Source: a virus. From it: a stretch of DNA of 64,000 nt. Within the stretch, counting starts at the first letter, position 1. Every line of letters begins with the position of its first letter. The position numbers were made by a program, and so were the translations under genes. Where the stretch lies: IMG/VR virus record IMGVR_UViG_3300045988_147571. One strand, given 5' to 3'. The notes beneath the pieces were generated by a model, which saw only the letters and a program-made list of their open reading frames with translations, searched no databases and was not told the DNA's origin. This document shows positions 31,354 through 49,256 of the stretch, piece after piece.

Positions 31354-31584
31354 TTATGTTCTCCTTTTCTTTTTCTCTATAAGTGTTCTCAGATTCTGTT
31401 TACCATATATAATAATAGAATAATACTTCAATGCTTCTGGTAATGGTACCGGATTTGCATTTAAAAAGTATCCATAACCATTGCCACATTTATGTTTGGA
31501 ATTTATGGAACTTATTGGACAATTAATATATAAACGCCCATTGCAGAATCCTCTTAACTTGGAGTATATTACATTTTTATTCAT
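31354..31584 (-). CDS. hypothetical protein
   Basis: 76-aa ORF. Its start overlaps the stop of family copy A. Confidence 0.5.
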   Translation of the reverse strand: MNKNVIYSKLRGFCNGRLYINCPISSINSKHKCGNGYGYFLNANPVPLPEALKYYSIIIYGKQNLRTLIEKKKRRT

Positions 31585-31870
31585 GTTTCCTCCTATGGAT
31601 CAAACCCTCTAAAGGACTAATTTCTAACATTTGACTTGTCCAGGCCCACCTATAATTATCTTCTTTTATAGAATATATATCATGAGAATATGAAAAATGT
31701 CCACTTTCTATAGTAACAACACATCCACATAATTTTTTCATGTCACTATTAAATCCTAGCATGACATTAGGCATTTCTCTGTCGGTTTTGCCATACTCTT
31801 TAATAAGTCTTTCAAATGATTTTACTCGGTATTTCCTTCCTATTTTTAATTTTCTAAGCTTTTCCATCAT
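31577..31870 (-). CDS. small tandem-paralog family protein (K-x-G ... L-I-x-R-R), copy A
   Basis: LKIGRKYRVKSF ... MKKLCG ... WAWTSQMLEISPLEGLIHRRKHE. Confidence 0.7.
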   Translation of the reverse strand: MMEKLRKLKIGRKYRVKSFERLIKEYGKTDREMPNVMLGFNSDMKKLCGCVVTIESGHFSYSHDIYSIKEDNYRWAWTSQMLEISPLEGLIHRRKHE

Positions 31871-32187
31871 TTCATCCTTTCATATAGTTTTCTAAACTTT
31901 ACAAAATCTTCTTGTTTACCTCCATTGTCAGGATGAGCTTTAACCATTGCGTAATGAACAGCTTCTTCTATTTCTAAAGATGATGTAATAATTTGGGGCT
32001 TTTTAAGTTTTATTGCAAGTCTTTTATTTTCTTCACATACACATATGATATCGGAGAGTAAAGAGTCATTCTTTATTTTTAATTTATCCACTTCCATTTT
32101 CAAATTTATGTTTTCACCTATACAAGCAAACAAAATTATTAATGTTGCTACCAATACAACACTCAACCCTACTATTTGTACTAACAT
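31867..32187 (-). CDS. membrane-anchored J-domain-like protein
   Basis: N-terminal hydrophobic LVQIVGLSVVLVATLIILFACI. C-terminal VKAHPDNGGKQEDFVKFRKLYE carries the HPD motif. Start at 32187 follows GAGGAGAAAG. Confidence 0.5.
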   Translation of the reverse strand: MLVQIVGLSVVLVATLIILFACIGENINLKMEVDKLKIKNDSLLSDIICVCEENKRLAIKLKKPQIITSSLEIEEAVHYAMVKAHPDNGGKQEDFVKFRKLYERMK

Positions 32188-33245
32188 AAATCTTTCTCCT
32201 CTTTTGTGCACAAGACAATTTCTCTTCTAATCGGGCATCCACCTAAGCAATCACATTGACGACTACAACATTTACAAGAATTCCTGAAATGGCTTCTGAA
32301 ATCATCGAACACATCTGAATCCCATGCTTCCTGAATAGTGTGTTCATTAAGATCAACTGCCCACTTAAGTTCCTGATTGTCAAAGCTACATGGCAGCATT
32401 TTCATATCTGACGTAATATAACCAGAAAATCTTGCTCCTTCACATGGTTCCAGAGTAGAGTTTAAAATCTCTTTTGTAAAATTCAGCAGTCCTGGCACTG
32501 AACATGAATCAAATCCAATCTGAAATTTATAATCATGTTTATCTATCAGAGAGAAAAATTCTTTGACTCTTTCGTCATCAGGAGACAACACATTTGCCTG
32601 AGTGCCTAAACCTACTGGCTTATGAAGTAAAAAGATTACTGCGTTGATGCCATTTGGAAAATCTTCCTGCTGCAAATGTTGAATAGCTTCATCAATAGAA
32701 TTCCGTCCAAGTACATAATGAATATTGGTAGTAACTCCTGCAGATATTAACATGTTAATTGCTTTCTCTGTATATTCGCTTCTATACCAAGAAATAGCTA
32801 CGGCTCCACAGTATTTTTTACAAAGAGATACAATCTCATCTGTAAACCCTAAGCCAGAACTTGTAAAGTTTGGTACAATTCCTTGTGATCTACAATACTT
32901 AAGGATTTCTTCAAAGTCTTCATGCTGATCCACATCCCCTCTACCACCAAGAGCAAATTGAAATGTTTTCCCTTTGCATTCATCTACTATTCTTTTGAAA
33001 TTCTCAAGAGACATATTAGGCTCCTGTGTATGCAGCCCATTCTGATAACACTGAACTCCTGACTGAATGCATAAACCAGATGCTCCATGGACACAATGCC
33101 CCATAACACCGATGTCCAACAAAGCAGGAAAATCTCTCATAAATGGTTCCTTTCCTGTTGTAAGATCATCAGACCGGATATACAATCCTGTCTCCGGATC
33201 AAATGTTTCTACAAAGTTGTTTTTCTTGTCGTGATATTTATACAT
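32181..33245 (-). CDS. radical-SAM/SPASM-like enzyme with non-canonical N-terminal Cys triad
   Basis: LLDIGVMGHCVHGASGLCIQSGVQCY (C-x8-C-x6-C instead of CxxxCxxC), ALGGRGD (GGEP-like), C-terminal CEGARFSGYITSDMKMLPC ... CKCCSRQCDCLGGC (SPASM-like). Start at 33245 lies 8 nt after AGGAG. Confidence 0.5.
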   Translation of the reverse strand: MYKYHDKKNNFVETFDPETGLYIRSDDLTTGKEPFMRDFPALLDIGVMGHCVHGASGLCIQSGVQCYQNGLHTQEPNMSLENFKRIVDECKGKTFQFALGGRGDVDQHEDFEEILKYCRSQGIVPNFTSSGLGFTDEIVSLCKKYCGAVAISWYRSEYTEKAINMLISAGVTTNIHYVLGRNSIDEAIQHLQQEDFPNGINAVIFLLHKPVGLGTQANVLSPDDERVKEFFSLIDKHDYKFQIGFDSCSVPGLLNFTKEILNSTLEPCEGARFSGYITSDMKMLPCSFDNQELKWAVDLNEHTIQEAWDSDVFDDFRSHFRNSCKCCSRQCDCLGGCPIRREIVLCTKEEKDLC

Positions 33246-33513
33246 GAATTTTTCTCCTCTCAATTAATTTTCTTATCCCTGTGGACTCAATCATTTCATT
33301 ATCCCATGACCAACCCTTTGTCTCGTCCTCAAAAAAAGCTAAGGTTTCTCCATGATTAAAAACGGATTTAATTGTATATGTATTCCCACAAAATACAATC
33401 ATTTTTCTTGTAAAAACTGAAGGTGTTGGTATGTTTCCCCGGCGATTAAGCCCATATTCTTTTTTCATTCGTTCCCAAGATTTAATTCTTACTTTCTGTC
33501 CTACTTTATACAT
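33238..33513 (-). CDS. small tandem-paralog family protein, copy B
   Basis: MYKVGQKVRIKSW ... MIVFCG ... WSWDNEMIESTGIRKLIERRKIHV. Confidence 0.75.
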   Translation of the reverse strand: MYKVGQKVRIKSWERMKKEYGLNRRGNIPTPSVFTRKMIVFCGNTYTIKSVFNHGETLAFFEDETKGWSWDNEMIESTGIRKLIERRKIHV

Positions 33514-33782
33514 GCCTGTCTCCTTGTGATTAACATTGATAAGTCTCCTTTTTCAAACATTTCACTTGTAAAAGTCCAATAGTTTCCAGTATTCAAATAA
33601 TAAGCATCATTAAAATTTCGTATATCAATTATCCGTAACTTTTTACCACAATACTTTTTCATTTCTTTTACAAAATACCAAGTCCTGCATGCAATAGAAC
33701 CATGAATAGTGGTGCCAAACTCCTCGGCCATATCATCCCATTGGCGAATCTGGACAATGTCTCCTATTTTGTATTGCCTCAT
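33501..33782 (-). CDS. small tandem-paralog family protein, copy C
   Basis: YKIGDIVQIRQW ... MKKYCG ... WTFTSEMFEKGDLSMLITRRQ. Confidence 0.75.
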   Translation of the reverse strand: MRQYKIGDIVQIRQWDDMAEEFGTTIHGSIACRTWYFVKEMKKYCGKKLRIIDIRNFNDAYYLNTGNYWTFTSEMFEKGDLSMLITRRQACIK

Positions 33783-34029
33783 ACAAACCTCCTATTGGCT
33801 TAACCATATCCATACTCCATATAAACTTTCCTTCATCTTCTTGGACTCTAAAGAGATTATACCAGCCTGTTGTACTAACAACTGTAACAATAGTGCCACA
33901 GTACTTTTTCATACTTAACATAAAGTCGCCCACACATAATATATATGTTTCGGCTACCCCTTCAGCAATTCCGAATTCTCTAACCATATCATCCCAAGAA
34001 CGAACTTTATACTTTTGTCCTACTTTCAT
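33733..34029 (-). CDS. small tandem-paralog family protein, copy D
   Basis: MKVGQKYKVRSW ... MKKYCG ... WSMDMVKPIGGLYEAIQNRR. Its 50-nt tail overlaps the start of copy C. Confidence 0.7.
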   Translation of the reverse strand: MKVGQKYKVRSWDDMVREFGIAEGVAETYILCVGDFMLSMKKYCGTIVTVVSTTGWYNLFRVQEDEGKFIWSMDMVKPIGGLYEAIQNRRHCPDSPMG

Positions 34030-34300
34030 TTCTCACCTCAATCATTCTTTTCAAGCTAGGTACGACCAACATATTCTCAGTAAACAAAAATTGTTCTGAA
34101 GTGTTTATACTTTTTCCTTGGTATACTCCTTCATAAAGAGGATCTTTTCCAATTATACGTATCTTGTCTCCACATAAAACCTTCATCCTAGATAAAAATA
34201 GTATGTCTCCAAAATCTAAAGCTCCAAGATAATCACCATTAGAAGCCTTTTTAAGTTCTTCCCAAGTTTTTAAATAATATGTTTTCCCTATTTTTAACAT
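34007..34300 (-). CDS. small tandem-paralog family protein, copy E
   Basis: MLKIGKTYYLKTW ... MKVLCG ... FTENMLVVPSLKRMIEVR. Confidence 0.7.
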   Translation of the reverse strand: MLKIGKTYYLKTWEELKKASNGDYLGALDFGDILFLSRMKVLCGDKIRIIGKDPLYEGVYQGKSINTSEQFLFTENMLVVPSLKRMIEVRNESRTKV

Positions 34301-34305
34301 AGTCT

Positions 34306-35382
34306 TTACCCAACCATCATGACATCAACTGCATTTTTAAATTTTCTCAGCATTTCCGGATTAGAAGAAATGATTTTCTTTCTTCTTGCTCTTGCCTTTC
34401 CATGCTTATTAATATAACGAGTTTCTAAGTTGTGCCAATTAATTGGAGTCATTTCTCCCATCTTTTTGTATACTTTTCTATATGTAACCATTCCTCCATT
34501 GCTCTTATCTCCATATTTTTCTACAAGAGGCGCAATAATAGAATCTGTTGCATCCTGATTACAGATTGATTCATATTTCTCATACAGATCCCCTAATGCA
34601 GCACTAAAGATAGACCTCAGAGTATCGTTGGCGTAGACAACATCATAAGTACTAAATTTACTTACTGGATTATGCTTCTCTTTATAATCTTTCACTTCCT
34701 GATCCCAACAAATACCATAGTTTTTATTCATATACTTATATACGGTTTTCATTACAGAACCACGATCAGAAAATTTATCACAAGTAGTGAGAGCATCAAT
34801 CATCTGATACATATCATTTTTCCATTTTTTGCCTGGATCCTCTACTTTCTTTACAGGAAGAGGTGTCGTAACAGCTTTCTCCTGAACCATCATAGAAGCT
34901 AAACGTCCCATATCTTCAAAGATTTTATCTACTTTTCTTTCTAATACTTCAATTTTGTTATTGAAATCTGGCAACTGTAACTGGATAACATTCGAGTTAG
35001 TGACTTTCTTCTCAAGGAAAGCTGCTGCCAATACATCTTTTGCCTTGAGCTGATATGTTATAAGTTTTTCTGCTATCCCTGGTTGTTCCTTTCTCATAGT
35101 TGGAGTTACTGAGATTTTAGCCAACCATAATGGTAAATAATCTAACTGTAAGCACATAACATTCTGATTCCCGCCATTAGTAAGGAGGGTAAAATTTTGT
35201 ACCCCCTTTGAAATTACTGAATCCGTCTGCATTTTTCTTCTTTCATATTTAATCCGGTTATCATCTAAACCGATAGCTTCACACACCCAACAAGCACCAA
35301 CCCAAATATTTCCATCAGGATCCTGTGCTGCTTTAAGAATATCTCCGTTAAATTCTACTTCTTTTGCTGTTAATCTATCCAT
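34306..35382 (-). CDS. phage antirepressor-like protein (P22 Ant N-terminal-like, from memory)
   Basis: 358 aa. The pattern NIWVGACWVCEAIGL ... LQLDYLPLWLAKISV resembles antirepressor N-terminal domains. Confidence 0.5.
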   Translation of the reverse strand: MDRLTAKEVEFNGDILKAAQDPDGNIWVGACWVCEAIGLDDNRIKYERRKMQTDSVISKGVQNFTLLTNGGNQNVMCLQLDYLPLWLAKISVTPTMRKEQPGIAEKLITYQLKAKDVLAAAFLEKKVTNSNVIQLQLPDFNNKIEVLERKVDKIFEDMGRLASMMVQEKAVTTPLPVKKVEDPGKKWKNDMYQMIDALTTCDKFSDRGSVMKTVYKYMNKNYGICWDQEVKDYKEKHNPVSKFSTYDVVYANDTLRSIFSAALGDLYEKYESICNQDATDSIIAPLVEKYGDKSNGGMVTYRKVYKKMGEMTPINWHNLETRYINKHGKARARRKKIISSNPEMLRKFKNAVDVMMVG

Positions 35383-35399
35383 AATACTGTTCCTTTCAT

Positions 35400-35825
35400 T
35401 TAAAATTTATGACACTGCATTTTACTTAATCTTTGAGCACTATAGTAAATCTGGTAATAAGAGAATGTATTATACGCATTTAAAGCGTATAGCTCACCGT
35501 TATGAATTTCTTCTTCTATTTTGGAAATATCGTAAGTACCAGAATAAAACTCTTTTTCGTCTTCAGTAACGTCGTTATAAACTAAATCTATAAGAATCTG
35601 CTTAATCTGATCAACAGTGCCAGATACACGCATGAATCTAATGCCATTAACTATTGAACATGAAATAGCAATAATCCATTCTTCTGCGTCTTCGTAGTCA
35701 GCAAGTGCATTCATTACATCATATTCTCTTTCTCCCTCGAAACAAACATCTGGGAAATCACTTCCGTCATGTATTGCAATAGCTTTTTCGCCATCATTAT
35801 TAAATCTTTCAGTCCATCTATTCAT
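35400..35825 (-). CDS. hypothetical protein
   Basis: 141-aa ORF on the coding strand. Confidence 0.55.
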   Translation of the reverse strand: MNRWTERFNNDGEKAIAIHDGSDFPDVCFEGEREYDVMNALADYEDAEEWIIAISCSIVNGIRFMRVSGTVDQIKQILIDLVYNDVTEDEKEFYSGTYDISKIEEEIHNGELYALNAYNTFSYYQIYYSAQRLSKMQCHKF

Positions 35826-36377
35826 TTACTCCACCTCTTTCAACTTCTCCACTGCAAGCTTCAATGACTCTACAAATTCATCATTCAACGCTGTACGGTC
35901 TGGATTTTCGATAAATTTTTCAATATCTTCAATTGCTTTTTCTTCAGGTGTAGAAACTGTCACTTTTCCTGTTTTCACAATTTCAATAAGTTCATCAATG
36001 CCATCTTTCCAGTTGCATGTATTACACAAACTACAGTTACACTTAGTGTTCGTGTAGTGCAATACGCATTCTGAACAACCTCCGTTGCAATCGCTTATAT
36101 CTGCAATACGATTAGCAAACTCTCTTGCCGTCATTTCTTTCGTCCCGAGAAGTTCTGAGGCTTCGTAGAAAGCATCACACTCTACTCCGATACGTACGCT
36201 GTGCACCACATCTTTGTTATTACAAAATTTTAAAATATCTGGAAAATGTTGTCCTGGCAATGGCTTACAATTGCCTTTCGAATACCAATGAAATCCCTGT
36301 TTCTCAGCTTCTTTGAGAAGCATTTCATTTTCTTCTTCTGTCTTAACCAAGATACATGTATTTCTTAAATCAACCAT
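35826..36377 (-). CDS. hypothetical protein; N-terminal domain paralogous to 37737-38012 and 37975-38283
   Basis: Start MVDLRNTCILVKTEEENEMLLKEAEKQGFHW at 36377 follows AAAGGAGGAAAC. The C-terminal part is Cys-rich. Confidence 0.6.
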   Translation of the reverse strand: MVDLRNTCILVKTEEENEMLLKEAEKQGFHWYSKGNCKPLPGQHFPDILKFCNNKDVVHSVRIGVECDAFYEASELLGTKEMTAREFANRIADISDCNGGCSECVLHYTNTKCNCSLCNTCNWKDGIDELIEIVKTGKVTVSTPEEKAIEDIEKFIENPDRTALNDEFVESLKLAVEKLKEVE

Positions 36378-36621
36378 CTGCGTTTCCTCCTTTAATTTTG
36401 CTAATACAAGTGTTCCAACCTCGAATCCATGCAAGACTAAGTTTACTTCTCCAATATTCCTCTTCTTTCTCCTCCAGCAATGGCTTCAATGGACACCAAT
36501 TAGGGATTACATCATTGTTCGGAACTCTCCTATCATTCATTGCTCTGCACCAAAATCCGCTTATAAATTTACATTTTCCGCAATTCTCTGGTGTGTCAAT
36601 CACTAATACTGATTTACTCAT
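36370..36621 (-). CDS. Cys-rich small protein (CxxC...PxWCPL family)
   Basis: PENCGKCKFISGFWCRAMNDRRVPNNDVIPNWCPL. Paralogous pattern to 9242-9541. Confidence 0.55.
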   Translation of the reverse strand: MSKSVLVIDTPENCGKCKFISGFWCRAMNDRRVPNNDVIPNWCPLKPLLEEKEEEYWRSKLSLAWIRGWNTCISKIKGGNADG

Positions 36622-36863
36622 TCAACTCCACCACATTTCACGATTTCAATAACCGTCTGATATAGCGCAGCATTTCTTCCAACCAGTTTTGTTATGTATG
36701 TATCCAACTGCTCCACAACTGCTTCCACATCATAGGCGGTCGGCTGCGCATCAATCATTTTAAACGCACTTTCTGCCGTAATTAAACTGTCTTTTCCTCC
36801 AACTTGCTTGTAAAATAACTCTTCATTCATTGCATCCGCATCAATCAGTCTCATATTCCTCAC
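36618..36863 (-). CDS. hypothetical protein
   Basis: 81-aa ORF (MRLIDADA...QPTAYDV pattern common in small phage proteins, from memory). Confidence 0.5.
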   Translation of the reverse strand: MRNMRLIDADAMNEELFYKQVGGKDSLITAESAFKMIDAQPTAYDVEAVVEQLDTYITKLVGRNAALYQTVIEIVKCGGVE

Positions 36864-37323: not shown

Positions 37324-37332
37324 AAAATCACC

Positions 37333-37743
37333 TCAATAAATCTCTTTAACAGCTCCCCAAAACATAATTGAATTATCAATATCAATGCCCCATTGCTCCT
37401 CATGCGAAGAGCATGTACTTTCATACTCATACTGTGGAAAACCAACTGTAACATCTTCTGTTTCAATAACTTTTCCTACTGATGTAGGTTCTTTGTCTTC
37501 CTGATGGTAGTAAACTATTCCAGTAAGAAACTCTATTACCATCTCTTTATACTTTGGATCACACCAAACATATACCTTATTTCCTGAGTCATTTTCTATT
37601 CTCCAGATAATGTCTTTATATTCTCTTGCGTTGTTACACAGTCTAAGCCATGCCATTGCATAACTTTCTGTTGTAGGTGCTGTAAAATCAGCAGTAATCA
37701 TTACCGCCTTTTTCCGCTCAATAGATAATTTCTCTTTTAACAT
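37333..37743 (-). CDS. hypothetical protein
   Basis: ORF 37333-37803. The start at 37743 follows AAAGAGGAA and overlaps the upstream stop. Confidence 0.5.
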   Translation of the reverse strand: MLKEKLSIERKKAVMITADFTAPTTESYAMAWLRLCNNAREYKDIIWRIENDSGNKVYVWCDPKYKEMVIEFLTGIVYYHQEDKEPTSVGKVIETEDVTVGFPQYEYESTCSSHEEQWGIDIDNSIMFWGAVKEIY

Positions 37744-38012
37744 AATTGTTCCTCTTTTCTTTTCAGTATTAAATTTCCTAACGTGCTCACTATATCCTTG
37801 CATTGATAATCACGATTATAGAAATCAGCGGAAGAATTATAACGTACTTCATAGTGTTCATCAAAACGTAATCTTGTTGGAAAGTCACAAAGTATATTGG
37901 TTAATTTAATTCCGGTTGCCCATGTGAAACCTTGATTTTGAGCTTCTTTGATTAACGCTATATATTCTGCTTTATTATTCACCAAAACAGTGCACTTTTT
38001 TAAATTTATCAT
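37737..38012 (-). CDS. DLR...QGF(T/H)W paralog family protein
   Basis: MINLKKCTVLVNNKAEYIALIKEAQNQGFTWATG...FPTRLRF. Confidence 0.65.
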   Translation of the reverse strand: MINLKKCTVLVNNKAEYIALIKEAQNQGFTWATGIKLTNILCDFPTRLRFDEHYEVRYNSSADFYNRDYQCKDIVSTLGNLILKRKEEQLC

Positions 38013-38283
38013 TAGCCATTTCCTTTCTAATCATTATGAGCCTTCGCACTCCTTCAATTAAAACCATGCATTCAGGATAATCTCGTGCACGTCTTCCACG
38101 ACTAGAACCATAATATGTATAATAATTTTTTCTAAATTCTAGCCTCGTTGGAAACCTGCAGAAAACTTTATTTAAAGAATCCCCAGATGCCCATGTAAAT
38201 CCTTGCTTCATAGCAATTTTAGTTATAGCCGAATATTCTTTTATATTGTTGACCAATACAGTAGAATCTCTAAGATCAATCAT
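37975..38283 (-). CDS. DLR...QGF(T/H)W paralog family protein
   Basis: MIDLRDSTVLVNNIKEYSAITKIAMKQGFTWASG...FPTRLEF. Ends ...RRLIMIRKE. Confidence 0.65.
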   Translation of the reverse strand: MIDLRDSTVLVNNIKEYSAITKIAMKQGFTWASGDSLNKVFCRFPTRLEFRKNYYTYYGSSRGRRARDYPECMVLIEGVRRLIMIRKEMANDKFKKVHCFGE

Positions 38284-38420: not shown

Positions 38421-38424
38421 TATA

Positions 38425-38697
38425 TTACTGCCTCCTTGCTATTATTAAATGTTCTAAACTGTTTGCCGGAAGTAGCATTGCATTGTTAAAATACCAAGTT
38501 ATTTCTTCATCATCTATTAATAGATGATATTCATCTAATTCAGGATCTGTAATTTTAGTTATTACACAAACTTTCCCACAAAGTTTATACATGTCTTTGC
38601 TGAACCATAATCTTTCCATTGAATTTTCATAATAGTAATACTGCTCACTATTTAAATCTTTTCTAATTACTACTCTATCTCCGACTTCGTACTTCAT
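38425..38697 (-). CDS. small tandem-paralog family protein, copy F
   Basis: MKYEVGDRVVIRKD ... MYKLCG ... WYFNNAMLLPANSLEHLIIARRQ. Confidence 0.75.
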   Translation of the reverse strand: MKYEVGDRVVIRKDLNSEQYYYYENSMERLWFSKDMYKLCGKVCVITKITDPELDEYHLLIDDEEITWYFNNAMLLPANSLEHLIIARRQ

Positions 38698-38990
38698 AAT
38701 TTTTCCTTTCTAATTTCTATAAGCTTTGCTAAACATTGAACAGGTTCTAACATTGTGTCACTAAAAACCCATTCCCTTGCTTCATCTCCCAGTGCTAGCC
38801 TATAGTTCATACAGTCAAAGTGTCGCGATGGAACCTTATCTATGATTTTATACGCATGGCCACAGAATTTTTGCATGTTAACGTTAAAAAACAAATATGC
38901 ATTATCGGCACCATTATAATAATATTTTGAGCCACCTTCCAAGCCACTTCTAACTCTCACTATATCACCTATTTTATATTTCTCTTGCAT
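38694..38990 (-). CDS. small tandem-paralog family protein, copy G
   Basis: YKIGDIVRVRSG ... MQKFCG ... WVFSDTMLEPVQCLAKLIEIRK. Confidence 0.75.
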   Translation of the reverse strand: MQEKYKIGDIVRVRSGLEGGSKYYYNGADNAYLFFNVNMQKFCGHAYKIIDKVPSRHFDCMNYRLALGDEAREWVFSDTMLEPVQCLAKLIEIRKEKL

Positions 38991-39247
38991 ATCAAACTCC
39001 TTAACCCATCAACAGGTATCAGCATTGCATCATTAAATACCCATCTATATTCCTCTTTTCCCAGAGATAATCTATAAGTTATTTGATCACAACCAATTGC
39101 TACTATTTCATACTCTCTTCCACGAAATTTTTCCATTGCCTGAGCAAAATACAACTCCTCTTCATAGAATGGATCTGAAAATGGATAACATCGTCCACCA
39201 ATTAAGTCTGTTCGGACGATTACTCTATCCCCAACTTTATATTTCAT
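38969..39247 (-). CDS. small tandem-paralog family protein, copy H
   Basis: Start MKYKVGDRVIVRTD at 39247 (after AGGAGG in the tail of copy I) ... MEKFRG ... WVFNDAMLIPVDGLRSLICKR. Confidence 0.75.
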   Translation of the reverse strand: MKYKVGDRVIVRTDLIGGRCYPFSDPFYEEELYFAQAMEKFRGREYEIVAIGCDQITYRLSLGKEEYRWVFNDAMLIPVDGLRSLICKRNIK

Positions 39248-39473
39248 GTTTCCTCCTCTTATCAATTAGTACAGTTAGTCCTTTGTAAGGAATGAATTCC
39301 TCTGCAGGAAACCAATAATTACTAGCTTCTTCCAGTTCATAAGCTTTTCTTCCAGAAGTTAGTTTTATAATTGATTTTATAGTACATATATTTCCTAATA
39401 GATAATTTATATCTACGCCCCATAGAATACGAGATATATTAGATCTGAGAATCACTTTATCCCCTTTTTCCAT
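39237..39473 (-). CDS. small tandem-paralog family protein, copy I
   Basis: MEKGDKVILRSN ... YWFPAEEFIPYKGLTVLIDKRRK. Confidence 0.7.
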   Translation of the reverse strand: MEKGDKVILRSNISRILWGVDINYLLGNICTIKSIIKLTSGRKAYELEEASNYWFPAEEFIPYKGLTVLIDKRRKHEI

Positions 39474-39705
39474 ACTGTCTCCTTTTGTGAATTGCTAAAA
39501 ATAAAGTACCTTCTGCAGGAATAAATATGCTACAAGGGAAAACATATATTTCTTCCTCTACATAACAATAAGATGTGCTATCATCATCACCTATACGTTT
39601 TATAGTCATAATTTTACCTTTAATTTGTTCCATAGGGATTCCCCATATGAAGTCATATGACCTAAGTAGAATAGGATCAACTATTACTTTATCTCCAACT
39701 TTCAT
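39457..39705 (-). CDS. small tandem-paralog family protein, copy J
   Basis: Start MKVGDKVIVDP at 39705 ... VFPCSIFIPAEGTLFLAIHKRRQ. Confidence 0.7.
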   Translation of the reverse strand: MKVGDKVIVDPILLRSYDFIWGIPMEQIKGKIMTIKRIGDDDSTSYCYVEEEIYVFPCSIFIPAEGTLFLAIHKRRQYGKRG

Positions 39706-39706
39706 C

Positions 39707-40448: not shown

Positions 40449-40508
40449 AATCTCCTATTCTTGTTTAAAATTTGTTTTTTTGTTTGTTTCAATCTTTACC
40501 CATAATCC

Positions 40509-40546
40509 ATATTCAGTTGTAATTTTTCTATATTCAGTTGTAATTT
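40509..40546. repeat. two perfect 17-bp direct repeats ATATTCAGTTGTAATTT, 21-bp period
   Basis: Copies at 40509-40525 and 40530-40546, between a terminator-like hairpin and the start of gene 39924-40448. Confidence 0.85.
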
Positions 40547-40550
40547 ATAT

Positions 40551-40575
40551 GAAAACCTCTTAGTGGGCTAGAGGT
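40551..40575 (-). terminator. terminator-like hairpin after the peptidase gene
   Basis: rc: ACCTCT agcccacta AGAGGT followed by TTTTCATATAAATT. Confidence 0.45.
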
Positions 40576-40607
40576 CAATCATATACTTTGGCATAAACAT
40601 TCCTCCC

Positions 40608-41588
40608 TTACTGTGTTCTTATATCAATAATGTCACAAGCAGAATAGTACTGGTAGTGACTTAATAACATACCAATTGCTTCCATTTCATTTACTGCAAG
40701 GATTTCACAACAGATTTCATCTCCATTGGTCTGAAGATAAATATGGAAGAATTTCTTTGCTTTTTCCTCTTTCGAGAAGATATAAGTACAATCATCTGTA
40801 TAAGCTGTTATGTAATCAGTGCTAATAGGTGATGCTTCTTCATCATCATAATCTCTCCACCAATTTCCATATCTACCGTACCCACCATAAGCAGCTTCAA
40901 TATACTCAAAAGGTTCTTCACATGGCAAAGCAAGGATCTTTTTCGCTTCTTCAATTGTAGAAAGCAATGCTTCTACATTGATTGTTTCTCCTAAGGTGTG
41001 CTCATTGAAATATCCAGAAGATAAATTAACTGCTGCTACTCTAAGTGCCGGAGCAATTGTTGAAATATCTGAAAGAGAACCCCATTGCGTTTTAAAGTAA
41101 CCAGTAGATTCAATAAACTCTTTAAAATCTGGATTATCACAAGAGTAGAACACACAATCGTTTGTTCCTCTCCTATCAATTTCTATGATGTAATTTATAT
41201 CATTGTTTACTATGTAGTCACTTACAGCAAACTTCTCAGCTCCTACGCATCCAATTTCTTCGTCCTCTGTAAATAATACAGAACACTTGAAATCTTTAAT
41301 AATCTGTAAGATAGCGTAGATGCCACACCGGTCGTCTCCCCCAATCCCTTGAGGAGAAGACATGATTGCTCCAGTATACTTAATTTTCTGGACACATTCT
41401 TTATGTACTGTATCCATATGAGCTACTAAAAGTACTGGGAAAGTTCCCTTGGCATAGAGGAATCCATCTTCTGATTTAGGTTCATAACCAGCTGCTTCCA
41501 ACTTATCTTCCAGATGTCTCTTAAGAGTCATCTGTTTCATTCTTAAAATTTCTTCAAATTCTGTGATTTTATATTTGTTTTTACTCAT
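40608..41588 (-). CDS. Zn-dependent peptidase (M20/M28/M42 superfamily)
   Basis: VLLVAHMDTVH, GGDDRCG and FTEDEEIGCVGA are the metal-ligand motifs of this clan. Confidence 0.7.
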   Translation of the reverse strand: MSKNKYKITEFEEILRMKQMTLKRHLEDKLEAAGYEPKSEDGFLYAKGTFPVLLVAHMDTVHKECVQKIKYTGAIMSSPQGIGGDDRCGIYAILQIIKDFKCSVLFTEDEEIGCVGAEKFAVSDYIVNNDINYIIEIDRRGTNDCVFYSCDNPDFKEFIESTGYFKTQWGSLSDISTIAPALRVAAVNLSSGYFNEHTLGETINVEALLSTIEEAKKILALPCEEPFEYIEAAYGGYGRYGNWWRDYDDEEASPISTDYITAYTDDCTYIFSKEEKAKKFFHIYLQTNGDEICCEILAVNEMEAIGMLLSHYQYYSACDIIDIRTQ

Positions 41589-43116
41589 CGCTGGCCTCCT
41601 CTTCTACACAATCTGGACAAAGCAGCCCTTTGTCACCTTCTTTAATTACATAGTATTTTCCACAGTGGATGCATTCTTTAACTTTTCTATCGGGGAAAAA
41701 ATCATCCTCACTTTCAATATATGTATATTTCTCTTCTAAGCAATGACTACATACTTCCTCATCTGTTGATGCTACATAAGTAATATCATCATTGTTTCGA
41801 AGTCTTCCACAACAATCACATTCTGTGAAATCTTCTTCCCTGCAACTATTACAGATATCCATATCTAACTCTCTGTAATACTGAATTTCTGAATTAGGAA
41901 CTCTTTCATTGCAGCAGTCACAATAAGTAGAACAGTCACAGCAATACCAGTTTCCGTTGATACAATACATCTCATCTTCGTCATAGCGATCACCGCAATC
42001 ACAACATCTATGAGATCCACTATCACCATAGTTATCATAACAATCCTCACAAAGAAGAGTGCTTTCCATGGTGTGATAATCTCCACACTTTACACAGTAG
42101 ATGTCATGTCCTACTGTCATACGTCTATCATCAACTCTTCCCTTGGGAATCATCTTGACGATTTTACTGACTGAGCATTCGCTCTGGCAGCTATAGTCTC
42201 TGTAATGAGTACCTTCAGAATTGATGACTGAACAACATGCAGATATACCACCTTTCTTTTTCCAAAGATTAGGAGCAACCAAACAGTCAGCAATAATCTT
42301 CTGAATCTGTGCTCTGATTGGAGTATATAGTGAATTTTTTCCATCGTTACACTGAGGATATAACCTTCCTTGTACAAGGATTCCATCCTTATAATGAAAC
42401 AACTGACGGATGATTTTAGGTTCGAACTCTAAGTCATTGCCATCATATTCTTTGTCCACCTGATAGTAAACCATTGTAGTTCCATCAAGTAAGTAACTCA
42501 TAGTTCCAGAACAGTGGCAACCAGAGTACCCATTAGGGTTATTCTTATCCAATGTATGACAGGATGACCAGCTATTTCCATTAGAGGACAACAGATAATC
42601 AACCGGATTAACTGACAAAATAGTATGTCTAATCTGATCCAGTGGATTAATTGCATCTGAGTATTTTGCATACGCTCTCTCAAAGTTACTATAATTTTCA
42701 GGTGTAATACTTACCAAATTACAGATTTTCTTTACTGCTCTTGAAGTTTTCTGTCCTTCAGCAATTCCTTTAATATCAGGATAAGATTCCTTAATGCAAT
42801 CAGCCATTTCCTTTGTAAGAAGCTGTTCTTTATATCTTCTTAACTTATCAAGAGCACATGTAGTATAAGTTCTATCTATAACCCATTCAATAAAGTTATA
42901 GATTTTATCTTCATCAGGCTGTCCCTTGATATTCTGGTCAAATGCTACATAACACTTGTCCTCATTCCAATTCGGATGATGTTTTAACACCTCCATCAGA
43001 GGTGCCTTGTTGTCTGCCCAGATATTGATAATTTTATCAATGGCTGAATCTCCCCAAGGAATGCTATATGTATCAAGAACTTTAATCATACCCTGTTTCA
43101 TTGTTTCTTTATTCAT
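41581..43116 (-). CDS. hypothetical protein with C-terminal array of CxxC zinc-ribbon repeats
   Basis: 511 aa. The last ~170 aa contain at least 8 CxxC pairs (CVKCGDYH, CEDC, CCDCGD, CCDC, CDCC, CNSC, CDCCG, CSHC, CIHCG, CPDC). Confidence 0.65.
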   Translation of the reverse strand: MNKETMKQGMIKVLDTYSIPWGDSAIDKIINIWADNKAPLMEVLKHHPNWNEDKCYVAFDQNIKGQPDEDKIYNFIEWVIDRTYTTCALDKLRRYKEQLLTKEMADCIKESYPDIKGIAEGQKTSRAVKKICNLVSITPENYSNFERAYAKYSDAINPLDQIRHTILSVNPVDYLLSSNGNSWSSCHTLDKNNPNGYSGCHCSGTMSYLLDGTTMVYYQVDKEYDGNDLEFEPKIIRQLFHYKDGILVQGRLYPQCNDGKNSLYTPIRAQIQKIIADCLVAPNLWKKKGGISACCSVINSEGTHYRDYSCQSECSVSKIVKMIPKGRVDDRRMTVGHDIYCVKCGDYHTMESTLLCEDCYDNYGDSGSHRCCDCGDRYDEDEMYCINGNWYCCDCSTYCDCCNERVPNSEIQYYRELDMDICNSCREEDFTECDCCGRLRNNDDITYVASTDEEVCSHCLEEKYTYIESEDDFFPDRKVKECIHCGKYYVIKEGDKGLLCPDCVEEEASDE

Positions 43117-43772
43117 GCTACAAATCCTCCTAAAATCTGTTCGTACAGCTCCTGTGGAATCTGTTCTTTTCCAAGAAGCTCTTCGCTGAGTTCCTTTGCT
43201 TTAGCCACTGCTGCAGTGCCCTTATCTTTGATTCTGTCATAAAAGACCTCAATTATGTTCATGACTTTAGAAACCGCTTCGTATTCTGTGTAGAGCTCTT
43301 TGTCGTCTGACTGGATCTGCTCGAACACTTCCTGTACTCCATAGGTTACGAAGCATTCTGGACAATAATCATTGACTAAAGGTCCGGAAATAATCTTTCC
43401 GCAGTGCTTACAGATGGAGAGTTTATAATCTCTCTCATCCAAATCTTTATAGTCACCGTTTTCAAACTTGAATACCTCATACTGGTCAAAGATATAAGCT
43501 GCTTCGTATTCCTTGGCGAGCTCCTCAAACTGAATCAGAACCTCTACAGAATCCTCTTTTTCTTGCGTAAACTTTTTTATTTTCTTGTTTAGAGGTTTCA
43601 TTTTAAACTTGCTGTCCTCAATGTAGAGAAACTTTGAGTCAAAGTTTTCTGTGATATCTTCTCCTAAGACATAATTCTTGAAGAGGAATCCAAGGACAAT
43701 ATCAATGTCCTTGGATTCTACCTCTGATGAGGTAATTTTATTATCTTTATAAAAACTAATAAGTGTTGCCAT
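43113..43772 (-). CDS. hypothetical protein with one zinc ribbon
   Basis: 219 aa. CKHCGKIISGPLVNDYCPEC. Confidence 0.6.
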   Translation of the reverse strand: MATLISFYKDNKITSSEVESKDIDIVLGFLFKNYVLGEDITENFDSKFLYIEDSKFKMKPLNKKIKKFTQEKEDSVEVLIQFEELAKEYEAAYIFDQYEVFKFENGDYKDLDERDYKLSICKHCGKIISGPLVNDYCPECFVTYGVQEVFEQIQSDDKELYTEYEAVSKVMNIIEVFYDRIKDKGTAAVAKAKELSEELLGKEQIPQELYEQILGGFVA

Positions 43773-43802
43773 TTGTTCTTCTCCTTTCTTAACTGTAACT
43801 GC

Positions 43803-43851
43803 ATTATAAACCAGTTTGTAAAACTTGTCAATACTTTTTACAAACTGGTTT
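43803..43851 (-). promoter_or_regulatory. consensus promoter whose -35 is bracketed by a perfect 16-bp inverted repeat
   Basis: rc: AAACCAGTTTGTAAAA agta TTGACA (43826-43831) ag TTTTACAAACTGGTT (17-nt spacer) TATAAT (43803-43808). IR arms at 43808-43823 and 43836-43851. Confidence 0.75.
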
Positions 43852-44692
43852 AAGAAATTTTCTTTCCTCTTTCATTGAACTGTTTTGGCTCACCGAGAGA
43901 TACGAGATAGTCCTGCATATAGAGAGCTAAACTCAATCCAACTCTTTTTGGATAAGCAGCTATCCCTTCAGCTTTAAGCGTGCTTGGTGGAGTTTCTCTC
44001 ATAATAGGTAATACTTTTGCTAATCCAATATCTCCGTAGAAGCTATAAATTTTATACAAGCTCATAATTATCTTATCACACAATCCATCTCCTGATAAGT
44101 TATAGCCAGCTTTACAACAAGTAGATATAATACTTTCATAAGCCGTCTTACCTTTTGCTTTAATTATCTTGTAAGCGGATGAATAGCTACCAATAGTTCC
44201 TGGTTTCCTTGCTCCTTTATCCTCTGCAATGCTCAACTTATGCCTGTCAAGCACTGCCTGCAGTGCTGTAGCATTTGGCTCTCCTAAGATAAGGTTTGCC
44301 TTATGCATCTGTAAAGGCGTAACTTTTTCAGTATATAAACTCTGTCTTGTAAAGATACTTGCTTCGAAACATCTTCTCTCATCCGGATCAGATGGGGCTG
44401 AAGTAATAACAACACATTCGAGTTTATCTAAAATACCTTCTGATGCAATGAAACGACCATAACCGTCTACAATAGAAAAAGTGCACTCTTCTGGATGTGG
44501 CACCACTAATAATGCATCCATAATCATATGATCAAAATTGTCATGCATTGCTTTAATTTTTCTATGATTTCGTGTTTCCAGCCGCTGATAAGCAGGATCG
44601 ACAGACATCAGTTCCCTTGGAATTACTGCGCATGCCTTTGTACCAGAGATTAATAAGTTGCTCATAACTGTGTTGTAAACGATGTTTTCCAT
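43850..44692 (-). CDS. ParB N-terminal-domain-like protein
   Basis: 280 aa. MSVDPAYQR and FSIVDGYGRFIASE resemble ParB/Srx motifs. Confidence 0.5.
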   Translation of the reverse strand: MENIVYNTVMSNLLISGTKACAVIPRELMSVDPAYQRLETRNHRKIKAMHDNFDHMIMDALLVVPHPEECTFSIVDGYGRFIASEGILDKLECVVITSAPSDPDERRCFEASIFTRQSLYTEKVTPLQMHKANLILGEPNATALQAVLDRHKLSIAEDKGARKPGTIGSYSSAYKIIKAKGKTAYESIISTCCKAGYNLSGDGLCDKIIMSLYKIYSFYGDIGLAKVLPIMRETPPSTLKAEGIAAYPKRVGLSLALYMQDYLVSLGEPKQFNERGKKIS

Positions 44693-44719
44693 TTTGTTTT
44701 CCTCTTTTCTTTTATATAA

Positions 44720-44745
44720 TAAAAAAGAGCTGTTTTCACAGCTCT
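44720..44745 (-). terminator. rho-independent terminator
   Basis: rc: AGAGCTG tgaaaa CAGCTCT followed by TTTTTTATTAT. Lies directly after the stop of 44762-44995. Confidence 0.65.
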
Positions 44746-44761
44746 AGTTTTATTTCATTGT

Positions 44762-44995
44762 TTAATAATTAGTTTCTACTAAGTTGGTGAGATACTCAAT
44801 CCCGTGACCACATAAAGCAGTCAGAACTTCATCTAAGATGTCAAGTTCTCCGTCTGTTTCACATGATTCAAGGGCCTGAATAATCCCGTACCCCTTTTCA
44901 TATTCGCTTGTATTCACAAGCTCTTTTGTTATTGTGTCGCCGAGCTTTTCCTCGGCATAGTCGACTCCGTAGAGTCTTTCCTTTGCTGTCTTCAT
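44762..44995 (-). CDS. hypothetical acidic protein
   Basis: 77-aa ORF on the coding strand. Confidence 0.5.
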   Translation of the reverse strand: MKTAKERLYGVDYAEEKLGDTITKELVNTSEYEKGYGIIQALESCETDGELDILDEVLTALCGHGIEYLTNLVETNY

Positions 44996-45309
44996 TTTGA
45001 AAACCTCCTTGATATAATTAATTCTTTAAGATTTTTGGGGTACCTTGTCCAAATTAAATCTTTATCTTCATAGGTCATACTGTATGTAAGGCCATCTACA
45101 GTTGGTTTATATAGAGCATTTATAGAATACCTTTTACTATGATTTAAATTTTCATCATAGCCACTACCCGTCATAAACCCTGTAGCGTTAATAAAACATA
45201 TATTTTGACTGCCGTAATGCTTTGTTTCACAATCGGTAAGGATAATGTAAGTTCCCGCATACATAACAGCTATCATTCCAGACCGGAGCTTCTTCCTTAA
45301 ATCAACCAT
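44992..45309 (-). CDS. small protein sharing only the family C-terminus (copy K, divergent)
   Basis: The body is unlike the other copies, but it ends NLKELIISRRFSK with an embedded AGGAGG. Confidence 0.55.
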   Translation of the reverse strand: MVDLRKKLRSGMIAVMYAGTYIILTDCETKHYGSQNICFINATGFMTGSGYDENLNHSKRYSINALYKPTVDGLTYSMTYEDKDLIWTRYPKNLKELIISRRFSK

Positions 45310-45547
45310 GCTGCCTCCTTATTATTAAAAAGCGAAGTGGCGAAATAGATATCAGATCCTCTATCCAAGACCACCAATAGTGATAATTTGAGCCACCATT
45401 TCCATTGTGTAATGAAATGTTTTCTTTATAGTAATAAACTAAATATTGGAATGGTTCAAAACTTTTGTCAATATCTTCTATCTGTCCTATACCGTAATAT
45501 TTATGATAAACTATGTCACCTATATTTAATTCTTTAGGATGTTGCAT
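45302..45547 (-). CDS. small tandem-paralog family protein, copy L (GxGxV / YFFK..LH.G subfamily)
   Basis: LNIGDIVYHKYYGIGQIEDID ... LVYYYKENISLHNGNG ... HYWWSW ... LRFLIIRRQ. Confidence 0.75.
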   Translation of the reverse strand: MQHPKELNIGDIVYHKYYGIGQIEDIDKSFEPFQYLVYYYKENISLHNGNGGSNYHYWWSWIEDLISISPLRFLIIRRQHG

Positions 45548-45770
45548 TTCTTCTCCTTTCTATTAGCTTGCACAAAGACACTGAACGGACAAGAGTAAGT
45601 GAGTTTTCCATACATAACCAATAATGACAATCTGGGCCTCTACCGTTGCCATTATGTAAACATTTATTTTCTTTGTAGAAATAAACCAAACATGGTGCTA
45701 AGCAATGTTCAAACCCTACTACCCTCCCCATCCCATAGTCACTTCGCCATACTATATCACCTATTTTCAT
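45534..45770 (-). CDS. small tandem-paralog family protein, copy M
   Basis: Start MKIGDIVWRSDYGMGRVVGFE at 45770 (ATGA overlap, after AGGAGG) ... LVYFYKENKCLHNGNG ... LCKLIERRR. Confidence 0.75.
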   Translation of the reverse strand: MKIGDIVWRSDYGMGRVVGFEHCLAPCLVYFYKENKCLHNGNGRGPDCHYWLCMENSLTLVRSVSLCKLIERRRNATS

Positions 45771-45988
45771 TGTTGCCTCCTTCCTATTATCCAACGTAAT
45801 GATTGGCACTTGGCAACTTCTTCTGGCCAGAACCACCAGCAATGATTATATAGTCCACAACCTCCATCATGAAGCTGATGACTCTCTTTGAAAAAGTATA
45901 TCAAATAAAGACCATCTAAGCCTTCAACAATTACTATACCTTCTCCAAAGTGCTCATGAAACACTTTTTCTCCTATTTCTAATGACAT
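45767..45988 (-). CDS. small tandem-paralog family protein, copy N
   Basis: LEIGEKVFHEHFGEGIVIVEG ... LIYFFKESHQLHDGG ... HCWWFW ... LRWIIGRRQ. Confidence 0.75.
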   Translation of the reverse strand: MSLEIGEKVFHEHFGEGIVIVEGLDGLYLIYFFKESHQLHDGGCGLYNHCWWFWPEEVAKCQSLRWIIGRRQQ

Positions 45989-46194
45989 TACCTAGGCTCC
46001 TTTCTGGTATAAGCATATAATCTGGTGCTATCCAGTAGTCTGTATAGTAAATATTTATTCCCATGCTTTTACCATTTTTTTTTTACAGTCATCACAGGAG
46101 GCGTTCTGTCTTCGACGATACAATAATCGTAGGTTTTTGTTGTAGATTTCCTCCAGAAACGATTAAGTTTCACTTTATCACCTACACAATACAT
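45954..46194 (-). pseudogene. family copy interrupted by a frameshift in an A10 run (T10 on + strand, 46075-46084)
   Basis: ATG at 46192-46194 follows AGGAGG in the tail of copy O. MYCVGDKVKLNRFW...VMTVKKKW* terminates right after the homopolymer. The other frame continues NGKSMGINIYYTDYWIAPDYMLIPERSLGNVIRNRRK. The 241-nt span equals 80 codons plus 1 nt. Confidence 0.7.
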
Positions 46195-46420
46195 GTTGCC
46201 TCCTTTTTATCAAAGATGCCAGTGGTGGAACATATTTCATATCTTGGATTTCGTCATTACTGAACCACCAGCCATGGTTATCTTTACAGGATCTTGGCTC
46301 TATTGCACCATCATGTAGAGCATCATTTGCCTTGAAAAAGTATACAAGCTCACTTCCGGGACGGAGTTTTATTACTTTTCCTAGCCCATAAAACGGGTCT
46401 TTAACATAGGTTCCTATCAT
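46178..46420 (-). CDS. small tandem-paralog family protein, copy O
   Basis: MIGTYVKDPFYGLGKVIKL ... LVYFFKANDALHDG ... HGWWFS ... LASLIKRRQ. Confidence 0.75.
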   Translation of the reverse strand: MIGTYVKDPFYGLGKVIKLRPGSELVYFFKANDALHDGAIEPRSCKDNHGWWFSNDEIQDMKYVPPLASLIKRRQHVLCR

Positions 46421-46640
46421 TTTGTCTCCTTTCTATGAGTAACCTTAACGTAGAAAGATATTCCATATCTGCAATTTCTCTATAACTGAACCACCAACCG
46501 TGATGATCTCCACATGAACCATCCCCTCCATCGTGCAATTCTTTATTTGCCTCGAAGAAAAAGACGAGTCCACTAATACTATCTATTTTGATAACTTTCC
46601 CTAATCCATATACTGGGTGTTTAATATAAGTTCCGATCAT
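46401..46640 (-). CDS. small tandem-paralog family protein, copy P
   Basis: MIGTYIKHPVYGLGKVIKI ... LVFFFEANKELHDGG ... HGWWFS ... LRLLIERRQ. Confidence 0.75.
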   Translation of the reverse strand: MIGTYIKHPVYGLGKVIKIDSISGLVFFFEANKELHDGGDGSCGDHHGWWFSYREIADMEYLSTLRLLIERRQNDRNLC

Positions 46641-46853
46641 TTGCCTTGCCTCTTTTCTATAAAATGTCTCAATGGTTTCTTATGCAAGAGCTTTATTTCA
46701 TCTTTTCTATAAGCCATACAGTCTACAACAATTCTATCATCAATTAAGCCGCTATATAAAAACATTCTATTGTAGGGATGACTATAAGTGACTACATAAG
46801 GATAAAGGACTATACCCTATACCATATCAATTTCCCTACTTTCCCGTAAGGGT
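46637..46853 (-). pseudogene. decayed family copy (only a 42-codon C-terminal ORF survives, 46637-46765)
   Basis: The surviving ORF MFLYSGLIDDRIVVDCMAYRKDEIKLLHKKPLRHFIEKRQGK ends with the family motif and an ATGA overlap. Upstream frames read GKVGKLIWYRV* and contain several stops. Confidence 0.5.
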
Positions 46854-47110
46854 CATATACATATATGTTCTGCATTGACACATTCCTTTCTCTTGGTGAT
46901 CAGATCAATCAGCGGTCTCTTCTTGAGAAACTTGATATGTTTTTTGCCATAGCAGGATGCGTTAGTTATATATCTTCCTTCATAGTATCCAGAGTAAAAG
47001 TTTGGATTATGTTTATAATGGTCTACTATGTAGTGAGAGAACCATAATGATCCATCATAAAAATTTAATTTACCTAAACCATCAGGTGTCTTTACATAAA
47101 TATGTCTCAC
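46853..47110 (-). CDS. small tandem-paralog family protein, copy Q (divergent, GTG start)
   Basis: MRHIYVKTPDGLGKLNFYDG ... RPLIDLITKRKE. AGGAGA lies upstream of the GTG. Confidence 0.6.
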   Translation of the reverse strand: MRHIYVKTPDGLGKLNFYDGSLWFSHYIVDHYKHNPNFYSGYYEGRYITNASCYGKKHIKFLKKRPLIDLITKRKECVNAEHICI

Positions 47111-49255: not shown

Positions 49256-49256
49256 A

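Follow-up and report, generated by a model that had tools for sequence, protein, structure and literature searches.

A 64,000-nucleotide stretch of viral DNA (IMG/VR record IMGVR_UViG_3300045988_147571), hereafter the window, carries three arrays of small minus-strand genes between positions 31577 and 47110. According to our in silico analysis, these arrays are probably strings of self-contained cassettes, each made of a start codon, a small beta-barrel domain and a C-terminal helix of 11-15 residues. The predicted helix follows the pattern h-x-x-h-h-x(1-2)-R-R and its arginine codons, AGG AGR, would be the Shine-Dalgarno of the follower. Each cassette would in this way provide the ribosome-binding site of the next one, whose ATG is placed 4-10 nt downstream. 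At the sequence level, our results showed this architecture, the dual coding, the conservation of the tail as a peptide, the presence of two core families and a recombinational turnover. The explanation that we favor, with moderate confidence, is that cassettes built in this way recombine and act as early accessory modules directed at the host.

An earlier note on this DNA had placed 17-19 copies of one family in this region. Small minus-strand open reading frames (ORFs) do occur there, and we count 19 cassettes once two interrupted copies are included, but not all of them belong to one family. They are A (31577-31870), B-E (33238-34300), F-J (38425-39705) and Q, R, P, O, X, N, M, L and K (47110 down to 44992). 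Each is given below with the evidence for its assignment, either a core hidden Markov model (HMM), a profile-profile comparison (hhalign), a Pfam match or a structural model.

31577-31870, minus strand: A, SH3_15-like, tail LEGLIHRRK (core HMM, E 1.3e-31)
33238-33513, minus strand: B, SH3_15-like, tail IRKLIERRK (weak Pfam SH3_15 match)
33501-33782, minus strand: C, SH3_15-like, tail LSMLITRRQ, modelled copy (AlphaFold2)
33733-34029, minus strand: D, SH3_15-like, tail LYEAIQNRR (core HMM; Shine-Dalgarno read as I-G-G)
34007-34300, minus strand: E, SH3_15-like, tail LKRMIEVRN, weaker Shine-Dalgarno (GAGGTGAGA) (core HMM)
38425-38697, minus strand: F, SH3_15-like, tail LEHLIIARRQ (core HMM; junction with a 4-nt gap)
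38694-38990, minus strand: G, SH3_15-like, tail LAKLIEIRKE (core HMM)
38969-39247, minus strand: H, SH3_15-like, tail LRSLICKRN (core HMM; the true start is the ATG giving MKYKVGD)
39237-39473, minus strand: I, short SH3_15-like, tail LTVLIDKRRK (core HMM, E 1.1e-13)
39457-39705, minus strand: J, short SH3_15-like, tail LFLAIHKRRQ (core HMM, E 3.9e-15)
44992-45309, minus strand: K, core unrelated to both families, tail NLKELIISRRF (hhalign, 10-residue tail only)
45302-45547, minus strand: L, Tudor-like, tail LRFLIIRRQ, modelled copy (Pfam CarD_TRCF_RID, AlphaFold2)
45534-45770, minus strand: M, Tudor-like, tail LCKLIERRR (core HMM, E 6.9e-31)
45767-45988, minus strand: N, Tudor-like, tail LRWIIGRRQ (core HMM, E 1.7e-22)
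45954-46194, minus strand: X, short SH3_15-like, split by an A10 run (hhalign to the SH3 profile, 92.5% probability)
46178-46420, minus strand: O, Tudor-like, tail LASLIKRRQ (core HMM, E 1.4e-27)
46401-46640, minus strand: P, Tudor-like, tail LRLLIERRQ (core HMM, E 8.8e-27)
46637-46875, minus strand: R, paralog of Q, interrupted in a G run, tail LRHFIEKRQ (hhalign to the Tudor profile)
46853-47110, minus strand: Q, divergent Tudor-like, tail LIDLITKRKE (hhalign to the Tudor profile)

X and R correspond to the two copies that had been called decayed. Both are interrupted, but each only by a single-base homopolymer frameshift in a gene that is intact in relatives. X has A10 in the window and A9 in the relative L012, where the gene is an intact 79-aa ORF. 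R is one G short compared to relatives (GGG instead of GGGG) and, with its frame restored, shares 36% identity with Q (E 3e-12). The two frameshifts could be sequencing errors, slippage or real pseudogenes. The central M-x-K-(F/Y/L)-C-G motif attributed to A-H does not extend to H, which has R-G in place of C-G.

The idea of a single family did not survive comparison of the cores. Core-only HMMs recovered A-J at E 1e-31 to 1e-13 and L-P at E 1e-31 to 1e-22, with no cross matches. When the A-J and L-P profiles were compared with hhalign, only the last strand and the tail aligned (30 columns, 81% probability). Q aligned to the Tudor profile over its full length (67% probability, E 5e-5) and restored R aligned at 88%. 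K matched the other cassettes through its 10-residue tail only. On these profile comparisons, we assign 11 cassettes to an SH3_15-like family (A-J and X) and five clear (L-P) and two divergent ones (Q, R) to a Tudor-like family, K being unrelated.

The view of the earlier note would require that all cassettes form one very divergent family, whose SH3-fold ancestor already had the C-terminal helix. We consider this unlikely. All of them are small barrels beginning with K-[IV]-G-D-x-V, their arrays share one genome region, and the hhalign match over the last strand and tail is in line with a common origin. Against it stand the core HMMs, and the fact that L-P have the CarD/PcrA Tudor signature G-D-x-V-x-H-x-x-Y-G-x-G-x-V while A-J match SH3_15. 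Moreover, the tail also sits on unrelated cores (K, a 76-aa Cys-rich protein and QGFTW genes, described below) and cross-family hybrids show 3' ends moving between cassettes.

The cores had not been recognised in the earlier note, but they appear to belong to the Pfam SH3_15 and the CarD_TRCF_RID/PcrA-UvrD Tudor superfamilies. A-J match phrog_7488 and, weakly, Pfam SH3_15: B and F score 12.7 and 14.3 bits for a cut-off of 24 bits, and the other copies have no match. The A-J profile finds 6274 clusters (E <= 0.001), most of which are tandem repeats in proteins of 150-1700 aa, and these matches cover profile positions 1-77, i.e. the core without the tail. SH3_15 was found in 37 of 124 multi-repeat relatives (E <= 1e-4, best 1.4e-92), which indicates homology at the profile level. 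Fusion partners of the A-J relatives are scattered (DUF3310, ART, GNAT and others). A protein identical to F is annotated in its source as 'Mind bomb SH3 repeat domain'.

The SH3/Tudor-like fold anticipated earlier was borne out by the AlphaFold models of C and L, both of which are beta-barrels. The model of C (AlphaFold2; mean predicted local distance difference test, pLDDT, 82) is a barrel followed by a helix at residues 81-91. Its best Foldseek matches are the Mib1 REP structures 4xi6, 4xi7 and 4tse (TM-score about 0.52, E about 1e-2), and YorP (2heq) was matched too. A search of PDB sequences with the A-J profile gave a chance proteasome match only, and a BFVD fold search returned only unnamed small viral barrels. 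In its predicted fold, copy C resembles Pfam SH3_15 (PF18346, Mind bomb 1 REP) and YorP of the B. subtilis prophage SPbeta (PDB 2HEQ). The SH3_15 domain often occurs as tandem repeats, as it does here, but in the window each repeat is a separate gene. The window copies also bear an extra C-terminal helix compared to SH3_15 and YorP, whereas distant relatives are without it.

For the Tudor-like cores, L scores 23.8 bits against Pfam CarD_TRCF_RID, just above the cut-off of 23 bits, P scores 13.5 bits, and M, N and O have no match. Several orthologs carry a precomputed PF02559 match, and source names of relatives include 'CarD-like' and 'DUF3553'. Among PDB sequences, L-P come closest to the UvrD1 Tudor domain and the TRCF RID. 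The model of L (AlphaFold2, pLDDT 77) is a Tudor-type barrel that matches the complex of the UvrD C-terminal domain (CTD) with the RNA polymerase (RNAP) lobe (7egs, as 7egs_B), the UvrD1 Tudor domain (9dqs), Mfd, PcrA (5dma) and CarD; target-normalised TM-scores are 0.74-0.78 for the top matches 7egs_B, 9dqs, 6aca, 6yi2 and 5dma. Each of these sequence and fold matches is weak, but they are mutually consistent.

The first-strand signature of L-P is common to the N-terminus of CarD/CdnL, the RID of Mfd (TRCF), the C-terminal domain of PcrA/UvrD and DUF3553, and the best structures for L include the UvrD CTD bound to the RNAP lobe. Compared to these proteins, the window encodes stand-alone proteins of 73-81 aa, as 5-7 tandem paralogs. 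The second half of L-P also differs (Y-F-Y-K-E-N..L-H-x-G..H-x-W-W) and is followed by the tail helix. From these matches, the beta subunit of RNA polymerase is a plausible target of the Tudor-like cassettes. If binding were shown, 5-7 tandem stand-alone Tudor domains of the RNA-polymerase type would represent a new phage contact with host transcription. In the literature on YorP, SH3_15, DUF3553 and phage Tudor/CarD paralogs we found no functional study, nor any paper dealing with either family in phages.

We then considered the C-terminal tail. The strict motif L..[LIMF]I.{1,2}[RK][RK] has 15 matches among 101 window proteins, all of them within 10 residues of the C-terminus and all within 31-47 kb. 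Shuffled proteins gave 0.07 C-terminal matches, a level that the observed count exceeds by far. A tail-only HMM built on the SH3 set places Q, L, P, R, one QGFTW gene, O and M, in this order, directly behind its own members. In K orthologs the tail (NLKELIISRRF) is nearly invariant for a core identity of 62-99%. Three further genes carry the tail:

31354-31584, minus strand: 76-aa Cys-rich protein of another family, tail LRTLIEKKKRR (motif match)
37737-38012, minus strand: short QGFTW-family member, tail LGNLILKRKE (tail-only HMM, just behind the arrays)
37975-38283, minus strand: short QGFTW-family member, tail VRRLIMIRKE (tail-only HMM, just behind the arrays)

The QGFTW genes form a further family of small paralogs, the third in the window. 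It is marked by L-V-N-N..E-Y....Q-G-F-T-W and comprises 35826-36377 in addition to the two genes above (all minus strand); the shared tail is found on the two short members only. Pfam, PHROGs and NCBIfam gave no match for K, the 76-aa Cys-rich protein, the QGFTW genes or X. Two sets of candidates were not retained as tail carriers. The protein encoded by 31867-32187 was dropped, as its ending LYERMK is most likely part of its own last helix, and three upstream genes ending in I-x-x-R-R (48761-49819) were left out because they do not fit the full motif.

The codons of the tail vary. The two Leu positions use six codons (TTA, TTG, CTT, CTA, CTG, CTC) and the Ile position uses three (ATA, ATT, ATC), and synonymous variation of Leu and Ile is also seen in the distant arrays L002 and L003. 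This indicates that the peptide itself is conserved. L003 has its own tail variant, S-I-x-Y-Y-L-x-R-R, which, when compared with the window tail, is hydrophobic at the same three places ahead of R-R. AlphaFold predicts the tail to be helical in both modelled copies (C and L). Since its hydrophobic part is kept at the peptide level, the helix would have a function of its own. Single-domain proteins distantly related to A-J stop after the last strand (M-[LF]-E) and have no tail, which therefore appears to be an addition specific to this phage group.

The arginine codons carry the second function. In the last 14 codons of the cassettes, AGG accounts for 26 of 41 Arg codons (63%) and AGA for 13 of 41, compared to 52 AGG out of 499 (10%) in the remaining gene bodies of the window. 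In the tails, the Arg codons make up an AGGAGG or AGGAGA site, located 4-10 nt ahead of the next start codon. The enrichment and the spacing confirm the earlier proposal that protein motif and ribosome-binding site are the same bases. The Shine-Dalgarno is read as R-R, R-K or V-R in 12 of 15 junctions, while at 32 other junctions of the window it is spread about evenly over the three frames. The proposal holds for most cassettes, but D, G and H read the Shine-Dalgarno in another frame (IGG, KE and GLRS, respectively). The R-R codons of B serve as the Shine-Dalgarno of the radical-SAM gene.

Nor does every junction overlap, as had been stated: 14 of the 15 scored do, and F is separated from the next gene by a 4-nt gap. 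Overlap sizes are 4, 8, 11, 13, 14, 17, 20, 22, 23 and 50 nt. The residues following R-R are the first codons of the next cassette read out of frame (RRQHG before MVD..., RRRNATS before MQHPK...), and therefore the tail endings of database orthologs show which cassette follows.

With 14 of 15 junctions overlapping and the Shine-Dalgarno inside the upstream ORF, the cassettes have the layout of translationally coupled overlapping genes. They share with the pairs reviewed in PMC12548453 a next start that overlaps the previous end, a Shine-Dalgarno in the upstream ORF, and overlaps of 4 and 8 nt. They differ in that the Shine-Dalgarno is fixed in one frame (R-R), within a peptide motif of unrelated proteins, and in the length of many overlaps (11-23 nt), which is above the usual optimum. 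Coupling by reinitiation is most efficient at -4 to +3 nt (PMC12548453). As many of the overlaps exceed this range, tight coupling is not assured, and reinitiation and independent initiation from the strong Shine-Dalgarno sites are equally likely.

Could the whole tail be a by-product of nucleotide needs, an A/U-rich enhancer plus a Shine-Dalgarno, with no role for the peptide? AGG is strongly enriched in tails at an ideal spacing to the next ATG, TTA ATA is A/U-rich, and no family of direct repeats in the region is larger than the junction. We nevertheless judge this quite improbable. At 46 Shine-Dalgarno sites of other window genes no bases are conserved upstream, whereas cassette junctions have the L-I codons there. 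The synonymous variation of Leu and Ile codons and the hydrophobic spacing retained in L003 with other residues (Y-Y-L) also argue against it. Finally, in D and X the I-x-N-R-R tail lies 26-35 nt inside the next gene and is therefore unable to serve as its Shine-Dalgarno. The tails of D (I-Q-N-R-R) and X (V-I-R-N-R-R) are encoded by the K-I-G-D/E codons of the next gene in another frame; that of D sits in the 50-nt overlap with C and is encoded by the Y-K-I-G-D codons of C. The two long overlaps involved, 33733-33782 (50 nt) and 45954-45988 (35 nt) on the minus strand, are in themselves cases of dual coding for two proteins.

The arrays also bear traces of recombination. Clean hybrids of neighbouring paralogs occur in the database (P0278 is M/L, P0351 is M/O and P0373 is O/M), as do in-frame two-domain fusions in relatives (P0001, P0032). 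Deletions that join Q or R to K, with loss of the whole Tudor array, are represented by P0442, P0440 and P0437, of which P0442 and P0440 are cross-family hybrids. Of the direct-repeat families in the region, the largest is that of the junction, TAATAnnAAGGAGGCAaCA, and a 26-nt stretch, 81% identical, links the tail of G to the tail of a QGFTW gene. We conclude that the arrays are reshaped by unequal recombination and that the tail can reach other genes. The suggestion that the conserved junction promotes shuffling is thus supported by hybrids, fusions, deletions and junction repeats, but many breakpoints lie inside the cores and not at the junction. The arrays would then grow, shrink, fuse and hybridise through unequal recombination between paralogs and at the short junction, which may also carry the tail onto unrelated neighbours. 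As read from the relatives, the arrays are dispensable in some of them.

Relatives compared at the DNA level are about 99% identical to the window where aligned. A search for near-identical DNA of the region in 50,697 phage records gave two short unannotated matches only, and a related-locus search with copy F as query gave one locus. Poxvirus K3L amplification produces a tandem 'accordion' gene family. It resembles the present arrays in its copy-number changes and hybrids, generated through unequal recombination in host-interacting accessory genes, but here several unrelated cores are mixed in one array. In T4-type phages, PeSL promoter-stem-loop cassettes mediate modular shuffling of small early genes (PMC2839356, PMC4122927). 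In both systems, small accessory genes are bordered by a short conserved expression signal, and related phages show insertions, deletions and replacements alongside it. Unlike PeSL, the signal in the window is a coding ribosome-binding site and not a non-coding promoter/terminator, and breakpoints are often inside homologous cores.

Array 3 is flanked by two putative expression signals, both of them consensus matches only:

47145-47173, minus strand: sigma-A-type promoter-like site, TTGACA-17-TATTAT with upstream TG, just upstream of Q
44726-44745, minus strand: terminator-like hairpin and T run, behind the 77-aa gene that comes after K

With the promoter-like site before Q and the hairpin, array 3 looks like one operon transcribed by the host polymerase and probably ending at 44726-44745. 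A perfect 12/12 sigma-70-type promoter match (TTGACA-17-TATAAT) is also present at 43803-43831 (minus strand), in the gap before gene 43113-43772.

Taken together, the cassettes would be early accessory genes read by host RNA polymerase. From their domains, their products may be small protein-binding modules aimed at host proteins, plausibly RNA polymerase beta for the Tudor-like ones, and the shared helix may serve a common docking or assembly function. Several points weigh against this interpretation. The SH3-like copies of the window score at 12-14 bits where the SH3_15 cut-off is 24, only L passes its Pfam cut-off, and narrowly, and the Foldseek E-values are weak (about 1e-2). SH3 and Tudor barrels share a fold class, and a very old common ancestry is conceivable. 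The tail helix is modelled at low confidence (pLDDT about 50-64). Many overlaps, at 11-23 nt, are beyond the best coupling range (PMC12548453), and the strong Shine-Dalgarno sites may drive independent initiation. Promoter-like sites across the region are not more frequent than in shuffled sequence.

A more specific proposal, which we put forward as a long shot, is that the L-x-x-L-I-x-R-R helix is a portable docking tag tethering a rapidly diversifying set of binding modules (SH3-like, Tudor-like and others) to one hub (host chaperone, protease, RNA polymerase or a phage factor). If true, the arrays would be a modular phage adaptor arsenal. As the tag codons are the next gene's ribosome-binding site, every cassette would be plug-and-play, expressed wherever recombination places it. 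More generally, if the tail is functional, it would be a short transferable peptide tag marking a class of accessory proteins in a common human-gut phage group (single cassette members are found on about 150-190 contigs), and a handle for finding these proteins and pulling down a common partner. Moreover, it would offer a clear natural example of a 6-nt element jointly selected as two arginines and a ribosome-binding site. The parts are of known kinds, namely domains of the SH3_15-like and Tudor-like types, coupled genes that overlap, and tandem families that recombine. Their combination, a transferable C-terminal helix on unrelated cores whose arginine codons are fixed as the next gene's ribosome-binding site, appears to be undescribed.

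Array 1 contains, between B and A, two genes that overlap their neighbours and whose order is also kept in L013:

32181-33245, minus strand: radical SAM/SPASM-like gene
31867-32187, minus strand: membrane-anchored protein with an HPD motif (K-A-H-P-D-N-G-G, J-domain-like)

The protein encoded by 32181-33245 has only SPASM matches (E 1.4e-4) and a Cys spacing of Cx7Cx6C, as read from its sequence. NCBIfam maturase models score it at 16-32 bits, for cut-offs of 250-625, and the canonical CxxxCxxC is absent. The HPD protein has no Pfam match, and the 76-aa Cys-rich protein has none in Pfam or NCBIfam.

Tandem arrays of similar small genes are typical of clusters encoding products like ribosomally synthesised and post-translationally modified peptides (RiPPs). 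The small proteins might accordingly be substrates of this enzyme, with the tail or the Cys as recognition or modification site, and its place between B and A, kept in L013, is compatible with this. We find it very unlikely: the enzyme is far below all NCBIfam cut-offs and misses the CxxxCxxC spacing, no such enzyme accompanies arrays 2 and 3, which are 5-13 kb away, the products are folded domains of 75-105 aa, and members of the wider SH3_15-like family that have no such enzyme fused to them possess the conserved Cys as well. Least probable of all is a broken multi-repeat gene or a polyprotein made via frameshifting, as could be suspected from the multi-repeat nature of most database relatives, the in-frame fusions P0001 and P0032 and the two cassettes frameshifted in homopolymer runs, since every cassette has its own ATG and strong Shine-Dalgarno, the overlaps range from 4 to 50 nt with no common slippery site, and these ORFs are again found as separate genes on dozens to hundreds of contigs, as well as in the distant arrays L002 and L003. 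All four alternatives are less likely than recombining, host-directed cassettes.

The window is part of a large phage with a G+C content of about 34%. Its minus strand holds nearly all genes up to about 53 kb. The strand of the genes and the GC skew flip sign at about 53000-56000, with a cumulative skew minimum near 56 kb, possibly a divergence point of replication or transcription. Among its products are NAMPT, an NAD synthase, an NAD-dependent ligase, a P22-type antirepressor, and BRO and PhoH proteins. Human-gut metagenome contigs of 95-264 kb, some labelled Caudoviricetes, encode identical or near-identical small cassette proteins; the protein identical to F occurs on 148 contigs, which measure up to 264 kb. 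A Firmicute host would be in line with the strong AGGAGG ribosome-binding sites.

Other features of the window were observed in passing. A second paralog family on the minus strand (3652-4035, 4035-4430, 26825-27592, 28410-28868 and 28865-29137) comprises five proteins beginning with M-K-I-R-K-G-F-V-T-N-S-S-S-S, and the one member scanned (n=1) had no NCBIfam match. A 511-aa protein (41581-43116, minus strand) has abundant CxxC pairs in its C-terminal half and no family match, and is followed by an M28/PepT-like peptidase (40608-41588, minus strand). In one related phage (L010, 1279-1926), a HicA/HicB toxin-antitoxin pair lies upstream of array 3, at a distance of a few kb, and the window and the remaining relatives have other genes at this position. 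Finally, minus-strand genes at 4633-8154, 10720-11253 and 17491-19536 form an NAD-related cluster (NAD synthase, macro/DarG-like ADP-ribose hydrolase, NAMPT, nicotinamidase-like hydrolase and NAD-dependent DNA ligase), which possibly replenishes NAD+ against host defence.

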